The translations under genes were made by a program, and so were the position numbers. A stretch of DNA of 64,000 bases, taken from Eledone cirrhosa. Lineage: Eukaryota. How positions within the stretch are numbered: position 1 is the first letter of the stretch; the number at the start of each line of letters is the position of its first letter. The notes under the pieces were generated by a model, which saw only the letters and a program-made list of their open reading frames with translations, ran no database searches and was not told the DNA's origin. Location of the stretch: contig OZ024740.1 in the NCBI GenBank assembly GCA_964016885.1, forward strand, positions 47,058,001 to 47,122,000, in the 5' to 3' direction. Below, piece by piece: positions 9,454-38,476 of the stretch.

Positions 9454-9514
9454 TATTTTATCTGATGAGAGGGTACCAAAATTTTGGTACCCTTGAAATA
9501 TATATAATAAAATA
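9454..9514 (+). ncRNA. Type I minimal hammerhead ribozyme
   Basis: TATTTTAT-CTGATGA-[GAGGGTACCAAA/TTTGGTACCCTT]-GAAA-TATATA-TA-ATAAAATA. Intact core, 8-bp stem I, long stem II and a palindromic loop III. Confidence 0.85.
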
Positions 9515-34599: not shown

Positions 34600-35482
34600 G
34601 ATAATAATGGAGCTGCGGCGCTGCAAATGGGTTACATATGAAAAAGTTTGTCCTCATCAGTGGCCATCCAACCGTCGTAGGCATTTCGTCGCATTAAAGG
34701 CCATATACCTCAGGTTGGTGCGAGCAACGGCTAAAAAAAAAGTCGTTGGGACACGTAAATAAAGGGGACGCTAGGGTAAACAAACAAAATGGTTTAAGCA
34801 GCAGAAAGAGAGGAAGAAGGAAACAAGTCCCAGATTTCTATGAATATAAATTCGGTGGAATCGTGAACGAGAGAATAAAGACCATCAAACCTGGTTGAAA
34901 TGTGAGCAAGGAAGGAAGGCTAACAGAGAGAGACTGCTAGAAAGGGTAAATACACAAAGATCTTTACCCTTTCTAGCAGTCTCTCTCTGTTAGCCTCTTC
35001 CTCACCTTTCACTCACTCACTCTCTGTCACTACCTCTCCTCCTCCCCTTTCTTCCCGTTTGACCTGTCCACAATCCTTTTCTCGCGGGTACTTGGCCAAG
35101 CCGGTATGAATTTTTTTCTCTCTCTCTCTCGTCTGCGACTTCACAGAACTTATGTTTACCGAATTCGCAGACCAGACCCCTTCTTCCTCCCGTTAGACCT
35201 GTGCGAAATTCCTTCCTTGCTCACATTTCAACCAGGTTTGATGGTCTTTATTCTCTCGTTCACGATTCCACCGAATTTATATTCATAGAAATCTGGGACT
35301 TGTTTCTTTCTTCCTCTCTTTCTGCTGCTTAAACTATTTTGTTTGTTTACCCTAGCGTCCCCTTTATTTACGTGTCCCAACGACTTTTTTTTTAGCCGTT
35401 GCTCGCACCAACCTGAGGTATATGGCCTTTAATGCGACGAAATGCCTACGACGGTTGGATGGCCACTGATGAGGACAAACTT

Positions 35483-35490
<8 letters not shown>
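34600..35490. mobile_element. Large fold-back element in (TA)n with a permuted HHR in each arm
   Basis: Arms 34636-34916 and 35210-35490, with an inner hairpin at 34917-34996. Confidence 0.9.
35408..35478 (+). ncRNA. Candidate non-circularly permuted hammerhead (mirror copy 34613-34718, minus)
   Basis: CCAACC..AGGTAT-A-TGGCC..GCGAC-GAAA-TGCCT..GGTTGG..GGCCA-CTGATGA-G. Confidence 0.6.
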
Positions 35491-35529
<39 letters not shown>

Positions 35530-35765
35530 ATAAAGATTCAGCGAGAATCGCATTTCGGCGGGCAGGAAAGCGAAGCGAAATGCAAAAATCAGAAATGATA
35601 CTGGCAAAGTGCTCAATAGTTAAAAACCAGAGCTAAACAATGTGTTAAGAAGCCATACAAAACTGAAAACGTGGTCAAGAAACCATTAACCACCCAAGCC
35701 CAAAACCAAATCAAGCTAAACAGGTCAAAACAAAATAAAATAAATGATAAAAAATAAATGATAAC

Positions 35766-35809
<44 letters not shown>

Positions 35810-35813
<4 letters not shown>

Positions 35814-36168
35814 GGAAAACCAAAAATGTGATGCATCGAAACACAATTTATTAACGTATTAAAATTGTTTCTCCGGCGAACAACTCGAAGTACGATCTAT
35901 TTGTGGATCGAACCTGACTCTGGATAGTTCCTCAGATACGTCTAGCGACTTCAAAGTAAATTCTCTGTCGGAACAAAGTCAGGTTCGATCCACAAATAGA
36001 TCGCACCTCGAGCTGTTCGCCAGAGAAACAATTGTAATACGTTAATAAATTGTGTTCCGATGCATCACTGATTCTTCGTTTTCCATATTATTATACTCTG
36101 CTCTGAAGGACCATAGAGTGCTCAACCGGCATACCGCCTATGGATGCATCCAAGCAACCTTACTACAA
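35810..36168. mobile_element. Fold-back pLTR with a long-stem-II type I HHR (35854-35941, minus)
   Basis: Arms ~35810-35919 and ~35977-36090. Reverse complement ACGTAT-CTGAGGA-...-GAAA-CAATT(T/G)-TA-ATACGT. Confidence 0.8.
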
Positions 36169-36188
36169 ATATATATATATATATATAT

Positions 36189-36786
36189 AATTTCCAATCT
36201 TTGTAAATGGAAACCGCTGGTAATAGCATTATGAGCAGGTAGATATTTAAATCATTTTTTAATTTATTTAAAGGATTGTTTAATGTTTGTTTGTTCTGCT
36301 CATCAATTTTTATAGTTCTGGTATCTCGAATTAGTACCATAGAACAACAATTATATTATAGACACCCTATATATCTCTATGGGTACTTAGTACTCACTGA
36401 GATATTTACCTCATTTTTATATATTCTCCAATCTATGTAGAAAAAAAATTCGTTGTTGCTTACTGTTATTTTTCTAGCAGCCAAGCCATCAACAAGTCTG
36501 TAATATTCCTGCTTTCACTAGCGGCCGGTTCACGTGTGGGTCACTTTAACGGCCATAACTCATACGAGCTGGTAGTTGGCATTATATTTGTGGACCGTGG
36601 GACGTATGTCCTATAGAAAGGAAATAGCTATCTGATGAAATTTATTTTCCGTTGGAAATTCTCTGAATTTCCAATCTTTGTAAATGGAAACCGCCGGTAA
36701 TAGCATTATGAACAGGTAGATATTTAAATCATTTTTTAATTTATTTAAAGGATTGTTTAATGTTTGTTTGTTCTGCTCATCAATTT
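36189..36786 (+). mobile_element. Retrozyme-like element (477-bp unit, 121-bp terminal redundancy) in (TA)n
   Basis: 36189-36309 recurs at 36666-36786. Confidence 0.85.
36627..36704 (+). ncRNA. Type I hammerhead ribozyme
   Basis: GCTAT-CTGATGA-(48-nt stem II region)-GAAA-CCGCCGG-TA-ATAGC. Confidence 0.75.
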
Positions 36787-38476
36787 ATATATATATATTG
36801 CATTCGTTAGCTTGGCCGCGAACTAAAGCTTCGTTAATGCTGTACTAAAATTTGTATTTTACTCCTAGAATTAACGATTAACTGATTAATTTAATCAGAC
36901 GATTCTATTGATTGATTAATTGTTTATGTTTGTTTGATAACTTCTGGCTGAGTGCTTAATTCGGTTTGTCTAAAGGAATTCATTCCTTTGTCTCAAGTTG
37001 GAATTCACCGCCAAAGCGGCCCCCCCCCCCCCCCCCACTGGAGAAAACCACGTGTCTATAGCGAAATTTTATGCTAGAGCATACCCGCAGAGGCTAAAGA
37101 ACACAAGACTTGCTGAAGAAGTAAATCCTTTGTTCTGTCGACAAAAACTATTAACTTGCAGACTCATGCAAGCGGAATTTGTCGATCTTGGATTTGCAGA
37201 AACCTAGCGCTGATGTTGTGTGCTGTATGTGATGTATATCGTGTGCTATACCATATGCATTATATATTTTGCATTCAGTCTCACCGTTTTGTCCAGGTCA
37301 GTCTAAAATCTTTTCCTGAGTCCTGTATTTTCGTTGCTCTGGTGATGCGGCTGGACTGCCGATCGCTATATTGCTGAAGTCGACTCGTAAGTAATGGATC
37401 AAATTAGAGTTTTACGCGTATGAAGAAGGATTATTTCAGTTGGTAACATTGTGTTGTCTGAAGAGATTGCAAGCTTCTGTATTCATCATAATTGCTTATG
37501 TAATTACATAATCCTTATAGTCCCTCATTTCGATCTGGACTAGAGACTAGAGATAGTTAATACCAAGATTATATATAAAGGAGCCAGCCTTTAGACGATC
37601 ACTCCATGTGCTATAAATTGACAACTTTCCCTCAAAACACACGCTACCACTTAAAGGAAAGAAGAATGTCACATTACATAATGTGACTCTAAATAGATTA
37701 ATAGATAAATAGCTACGACTCGAACACCTTTTATCAATTATGAGTTGGTGTTACAGAACCAGAACAACTATAATAATAACAACCACAATAAGCAATTAAA
37801 TAAGAAATTTCAGTATATTATCACTAACAGGGTATTATAGCTATGTTACACACTTATTGCATCGATTCACCTAACTTCAAACTATGTTTTTACAAATTTC
37901 ATATTTGTTATGTATGTATGCAGTGGTGGACTGGACAGGTTCCCAGGTTGCCTAATGGCAAGTGGGCCCCAGGAGGTCCACGGTAGCATTGCAGGGCCCA
38001 TTCAAGTATTTTAGGGGCCAATGCTTTGCTTTCAAAAAATACCTGAAGTCTAAGAGAAAGAATAAAATAAAAAAATAAAATAAAATAAACCAATTAAGCA
38101 AAGCATTTGGTCAACCAATTCAACCCAGGGAATTAATAGAAACCAAAATATAAAATAGTGCAAATAGCTGGAATCAGTGGTTGTACATTCTACTAAATCT
38201 AAAGCTTAATGTATTCATTCTGCATGCAAACATACATATATAGACACAGGCCCACAAGCATATATATATATATATACATATATATAGTGGTAGAACATAT
38301 ATATATATATATATACATATATATATAGTGGTAGAACACTGGAAGGTAATATCCGTATTGGTAGAGCACTCAGTCCATGGAACGAGTTAGGTAGAAGTGG
38401 TTACACAACAGTTAGTTCACCATACCGAGAACAATTGTTTCACCTTAGCGGATTCCTCAGGATTACGAGCTGAGGA

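Follow-up and report, generated by a model that had tools for sequence, protein, structure and literature searches.

The window, a 64,000-nt stretch of contig OZ024740.1 (positions 47,058,001 to 47,122,000, forward strand) in the Eledone cirrhosa assembly GCA_964016885.1, carries a 598-bp element at 36189–36786 on its plus strand. It is a 5'-truncated, partial-tandem copy bordered by two (TA)n target microsatellites, (TA)10 at 36170–36189 and (TA)6 at 36787–36798. A full non-coding unit of 477 bp (36310–36786, numbered q1–477), delimited by its period and by a near-dimer copy at locus L007, is preceded by a pseudo-LTR-like partial unit (36189–36309, q357–477). The resulting direct repeats (36189–36309 and 36666–36786) are 121 nt long, 98% identical and 477 nt apart, and they differ at 36218/36695 (q386) and 36235/36712 (q403); both carry a 3-T variant found in 6 of 119 passages. 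The longest ORF of the unit encodes 68 aa, and the RT and GIY-YIG ORF of an autonomous Penelope-like element (PLE) is absent.

A complete type I hammerhead ribozyme (HHR) motif with an intact catalytic core is located at the right end (36627–36704, plus strand), with a predicted cut after q390 (36699). The left repeat retains only the 3' half, GAAAC..GUA|AUAGC, with no CUGANGA in the 400 nt upstream, and the predicted cut at its GUA triplet (36220–36222, plus strand) falls after 36222. The direct repeats, the bordering (TA)n tracts and the one whole and one half ribozyme described in the earlier note were all confirmed; the spacing of exactly one unit between the two GUA sites, to which it drew attention, is also correct and is a trivial consequence of the 477-nt spacing of the direct repeat. 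A long hairpin is predicted between the cut site and the 3' end of each repeat (36231–36303 and 36708–36780, plus strand). The 3' terminus itself (36775–36786, plus strand), 87 nt past the cut, is one of two family ends, A, and a putative start site for reverse transcription. The other, B, is internal in the window copy (36416–36418) and forms the 3' edge of a "tail" of about 108 nt (36310–36418, plus strand). The right flank (36799–36857) is a piece of another high-copy repeat which ends in (TA)n in its other copies, and a MITE-like pair of 95-bp inverted repeats lies immediately upstream of the element (35828–36068).

Stem I of the right-hand motif is formed by GCUAU/AUAGC and stem III by ACC/GGU, with CUGAUGA at 36632–38 and GAAA at 36687–90, and the 6-bp stem II contains an inserted 10-bp hairpin (36652–36674). 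Every catalytic base is present, but the 10.1–11.1 pair is A.G and not G-C. This is the state of the family: of 114 copies, 113 have the A and 106 the G, and A.G occurs in 64 of 68 fresh copies. Judged from the replacement of G10.1-C11.1, and from a predicted HHR fold lying 1.8 kcal/mol above the minimum-energy fold, cleavage by the family ribozyme may be weak or slow. Rfam yielded nothing at gathering score across the window and no HHR at E<=10 in 35500–37200. Stem III is palindromic, which is typical of HHRs acting as dimers (PMC4209133); the homodimer fold is predicted at -12.2 kcal/mol and, in a dimer-type fold, the single complete enzyme half could also cut the left GUA. The monomer fold of the unit gives z=-4.9. 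Stems I and II keep their pairing despite sequence change across three sister families. One of these (44 matches, about 78% identical, period 479) has a canonical G-C at 10.1–11.1 and a compensated stem I, and its copies likewise end at A and B; a third family, of period 459 and present at locus L199, has U.U at this position. The axolotl ribozyme HHR_Amex2 tolerates a basal U.U mismatch in stem II (PMC7229834).

A 24-mer from the unit has 311 exact matches in the genome and its reversed control has none, and the family is therefore not a product of chance. Ends were analysed for a first set of 103 loci and for 118 further loci chosen by terminal pattern only, 14 of which were already among the first 103. 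Fifteen duplicate loci and L110, which had no piece above the cut-off, were left out of the first end analysis, and L077 was excluded as a duplicate of L076 from the comparison of within- and between-locus divergence onward. The family has at least 190 dispersed copies; the final analysis of arms covered 190 distinct loci (72 old and 118 new) and omitted repeated pieces of L262, L317 and L387 together with arms ending at neither A nor B. Passages through end A number about 430, as a rough lower estimate.

Copies of the family have their 3' ends at two fixed sites, either at A (q477, 87 nt past the cut) or at B (q107–109 of the next unit, about 108 nt beyond A and about 195 nt past the cut), the segment between them corresponding to the tail of PLEs. 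They terminate in a T run adjoining (TA)n, most family junctions adjoin such tracts, and searches with the terminal patterns followed by (TA)n gave 107 and 121 exact matches, which marks the targets as AT-rich (TA)n sequence. Among the 46 single-arm insertions of the first set, 31 end at A, 14 at B and 1 elsewhere. No direct duplication of the flanks adjoining the ends was resolved, and any target-site duplication would be hidden in (TA)n. At L023, L034 and L073 the two flanking sequences outside the (TA)n are inverted repeats of one another, probably as a result of insertion into another inverted element. L076 and L077, 150 kb apart on C2, share an insertion and a chitin-synthase exon and constitute an inverted segmental duplicate.

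The 5' ends, by comparison with these fixed sites, are variable and spread across the whole unit in both sets of loci. Arms longer than one unit (51 of 281) always keep the same period; 12 of the 281 cross two cut sites and the longest extends over 964 nt, such that the window copy is long and not exceptional. Drop-off is about three times higher beyond one unit. The commonest truncation window, q355–362, holds 15 ends where 5.7 were expected, the window having been picked after the data were seen, and the 5' end of the window copy, q357, falls within it. The earlier note had stressed that the redundancy starts inside the ribozyme; q357 does lie within the HHR, but it is an ordinary truncation point. 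Near the cut, 5' ends fall in q374–404 at 3 of the 9 loci joined to (TA)n and, over q389–393, 11 ends were observed against 4.1 expected, an uncorrected excess which AT-rich neighbouring windows share, so that any pile-up of 5' ends at the cut site is weak.

In head-to-head insertions, one arm ends at A and the other at B in 87 of the 91 pairs in which both ends could be typed (33 of 34 in the first set and 54 of 57 in the new set, p=4e-13 for the latter); three pairs are A+A and one is B+B, and the count leaves aside 4 old and 6 new pairs with an end that could not be typed. Hand counts gave 11 A+B, 1 B+B and 2 other inverted pairs for the sister family, and A+B in 14 of 16 pairs for the autonomous PLE represented by locus L198, the remaining 2 having an untyped end. 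The count puts a number on a feature previously described in words. Our literature search, conducted mostly without subscription papers, yielded no paper that counts A+B pairing or that ties it to the mechanism concept of twin priming, and older PLE reviews may discuss it. This tally of A+B pairing is the new detail here, the element being otherwise of a known kind. Such pairing would not be expected from the in vitro finding that the two strands of a PLE insertion use the same start sites (PMC11167929).

Published PLE insertions are partial tandems truncated at the 5' end, with a copy in inverse orientation and a tail on one side (PMC8557442, PMC3846280); the two tail edges are internal start sites of the RT (PMC11167929). 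The family carries the marks of a non-autonomous PLE, namely fixed 3' ends with an optional tail, 5' truncation, partial tandems and inverted structures, together with those of a non-LTR retrozyme, a short non-coding unit with a type I HHR and no true LTRs; its tandems are partial, extending to about two units, with no three-site array. Since fixed 3' ends, variable 5' ends and A+B pairs are the signature of PLE insertion, we consider the unit very probably a non-autonomous PLE derivative, a non-LTR retrozyme mobilised by PLE protein, and mobilisation by such a protein is likely because every PLE insertion mark is present. The earlier note was right in seeing a retrozyme-like unit whose copying ran on across an intact cleavage junction. 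The unit is not "independent", as it was also called, because it encodes nothing and bears PLE insertion marks. Retrozyme papers infer PLE mobilisers from co-occurrence, common HHRs and pLTR similarity (PMC7229834; 10.64898/2026.07.22.740005); here the whole insertion signature sits on a retrozyme-type unit, which makes the family useful, the locus itself being ordinary.

The family resembles metazoan non-LTR retrozymes (PMC7229834; 10.64898/2026.07.22.740005): its unit is short and non-coding, has a type I HHR, a low GC content and a predicted RNA strongly paired with itself, is found in copies longer than one unit and co-occurs with PLEs. Its 477-nt unit exceeds the 170–400 nt given in PMC7229834 and lies within the 51–972 nt of 10.64898/2026.07.22.740005. 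It differs from the retrozymes described in those sources in being dispersed, in reaching at most about two units with no array found, and in its strict (TA)n targeting. With one complete HHR the window copy falls outside the two-HHR rule for "active" elements of 10.64898/2026.07.22.740005. To EN+ PLEs of the Neptune/Nematis type it is linked by fixed 3' ends with an optional tail, 5' truncation, partial tandems, head-to-head inverted copies, the (TA)n target and an HHR shortly upstream of the ends (PMC8557442, PMC3846280, PMC11167929). The distance from cut to first end is 87 nt here, about 85 nt in PAc by our arithmetic and 82 nt in L198. Unlike these PLEs, the unit has no ORF and no alignable similarity to those sampled, and its tail of about 108 nt is longer than the published 30–40 nt and the 68 nt of L198. 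The minimal and dimeric HHRs of PLEs share its 5-bp stem I, long stem II, extra A after A9 and palindromic stem III; they differ from it (PMC4209133) in the A.G that here replaces G10.1-C11.1 and in the hairpin that interrupts its stem II. The Chlamys PLEs, MRC1 among them, are likewise non-autonomous, with pLTRs and head-to-tail copies, but their 3' ends resemble that of an autonomous family and they belong to a clade without canonical HHRs (PMC8557442). The plant LTR retrozyme, with true LTRs and a type III HHR, is not matched, given the type I topology and variable 5' ends found here.

A candidate for the machinery is present in the genome. L198 contains an autonomous element of the Neptune/Nematis type (RT, CX4CX2C linker and C-terminal GIY-YIG, period 4979), of which a 24-mer has 13,227 matches; its ends lie at cut+82 and cut+150 and their motifs are similar to those of the 477-bp family. 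Likeness between the two is limited to short end motifs and spacing, and a BLAST comparison of the unit with the PLE portions of 50 GIY-YIG loci (of 10,596 candidates) gave no similarity at E<0.05. L198 shows that the machinery exists in the genome and behaves alike; it is not evidence of partnership. This very abundant PLE, seen at L198 2373–7651 and L199 1976–5476, carries an HHR-like motif that belongs to the U3-A8 variants, and many of its copies are 5'-truncated 60–75 nt upstream of their own cut site.

The nature of the template is a separate question. Read-through of the cut site occurs in 204 of 220 passages. Copying through the cleavage junction, which the earlier note took as a sign of a circle or multimer, thus does take place, but it is neither special to this copy nor diagnostic of a circle. 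It is the norm because copying starts downstream of the cut, by 87 or about 195 nt, and any copy longer than 87 nt from A, or than about 195 nt from B, needs an intact junction; an intact junction fits a religated circle and an uncut linear RNA alike. The permutation of genomic copies, proposed there as a check, shows that they are not permuted, their 3' ends being fixed at A and B. Compared at non-CpG subfamily sites, the tandem repeats agree in 371 of 401 cases (268 expected), the T-run at end B accounting for 10 of the 30 mismatches, and in 65 of 73 in fresh loci (50 expected); the agreement is seen in several lineages. Divergence is 3.4% between tandem and 3.3% between inverted repeats within loci, pairs which are not independent, against 5.5% between loci. 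Two exact cut-site motifs one unit apart occur at 14 loci and three at none, and the combination of lineage-matched repeats with the lack of a long array suggests that the repeated parts of one insertion arose by recopying of a single unit. Gene conversion could also homogenise neighbouring repeats. Tandem units of different subfamily type are present at L011 and L002. At L011 (1494–2098) the upstream partial unit does not share its subfamily with the full unit or with the inverted arm, and the switch, near end A, suggests a jump of the RT between two RNAs. Recombination at the cut site in the discordant tandems was rejected, the differences lying on both sides (12 versus 9 common alleles).

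A comparison of arms, fixed in advance as a way to tell a circle from a linear template, did not separate the two: 9 of 14 B arms on their second pass stopped, against 14 of 30 A arms on their first pass over the same stretch (p=0.22; pooled, 14 of 24 against 22 of 52, p=0.15). Arm drop-off increases with length and change points from 350 to 500 nt fit equally; a Poisson model favoured a change point reckoned from each arm's own start only with inclusion of the first sample, from which the idea had come (p=0.016 pooled, 0.09 for the new loci alone).

Circles are formed by related retrozymes in coral, mussel and axolotl (PMC7229834) and a circle model for PLE tandems has been proposed earlier (PMC4209133). 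Chimeric tandems, possible gene conversion, the altered HHR and the outcome of the preset arm comparison count against a clean circle model. Given a non-autonomous, PLE-mobilised element, we consider it slightly more probable than not that its template was a 477-nt circle. A Neptune/Nematis-type Penelope-like protein acting in trans would carry out target-primed reverse transcription into (TA)n, its endonuclease nicking the target and its RT beginning inside the RNA at A or B; the RNA would have an intact cut site, likely that of the religated 477-nt circle. Where both DNA strands prime, one would start from A and the other from B, to give a head-to-head insertion. For the window copy, synthesis would have started at A, covered 477 nt, continued for another 121 nt and ended within the hairpin of stem II. 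Taken as a whole, this account, insertion by a PLE in trans from a likely circular 477-nt template, we regard as just about probable. A fuller version, in which a ribozyme-closed circle sits on a dimeric Neptune-type protein with the RT sites starting at A and B of the same molecule, one for each nicked strand, is speculative and rather unlikely; if true, pseudo-LTRs, the one-sided tail and head-to-head insertions would come from a single mechanism and the unit would be its minimal test substrate.

The chief competitor, a serious one although we hold it to be less probable than a circle, retains the same PLE-mobilised family and replaces the circle by uncut linear RNA from partial-tandem sources, the HHR being slow or vestigial and the redundancy either inherited or rebuilt when the RT jumps within its RNA or onto a sibling. 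The only PLE to have been reconstituted in vitro could dispense with HHR cutting and used mainly uncut RNA as template (PMC11167929), and cleavage failed in 8 of 9 Xenopus dimers (10.64898/2026.07.22.740005). The non-canonical 10.1–11.1 pair, the chimeric tandem at L011, the higher drop-off beyond one unit and the small number of arms that cross two cut sites, none longer than 964 nt, point in the same direction. Linear copying, however, requires a separate means of keeping both repeats lineage-matched, and a long source array was not found among the 14 two-site loci; the retention of HHR stems in three families and the modest, uncorrected excess of 5' ends at q389–393, shared by AT-rich neighbours, also count against it.

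Of two further explanations, one, very improbable, regards the copies as fragments from the 3' end of an autonomous PLE that happens to carry a 477-bp tandem repeat there; most PLE copies are indeed 5'-truncated and a related unit lies 1.5 kb downstream of the PLE ORF in L199, but there a (TA)n tract parts it from the PLE's own end, none of the 281 arms leaves the 477 period into common upstream sequence, the 83 flank ORFs scanned of 106 include none with a PLE domain, and the sister families have periods of their own, 479 and 459. Even less credible is a local DNA duplication, or a small LTR-type element with true LTRs, as the source of the 121-bp redundancy. Two terminal repeats of 98% identity look LTR-like at a single locus, but the left boundary is not common to the family and over-length arms always show the same period. 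True LTRs are ruled out by the spread of 5' ends over the whole unit.

Further elements of similar appearance were observed. At L207 (6857–7667) another HHR unit, of period 511, lies among (TA)n tracts. In the window, 34633–35493 consists of two 285-bp arms in inverted orientation, bordered by (TA)n tracts and with a degenerate CUGAUGA motif near each end; it probably represents a further inverted insertion of PLE type. Other families contribute type I HHR-like motifs at 9462(+), 19877(-), 21272(+), 21647(+), 51816(-), 53221(+), 59648(-) and 59707(+), of which 51816/53221 and 59648/59707 form head-to-head pairs, as in PLE inverted insertions.
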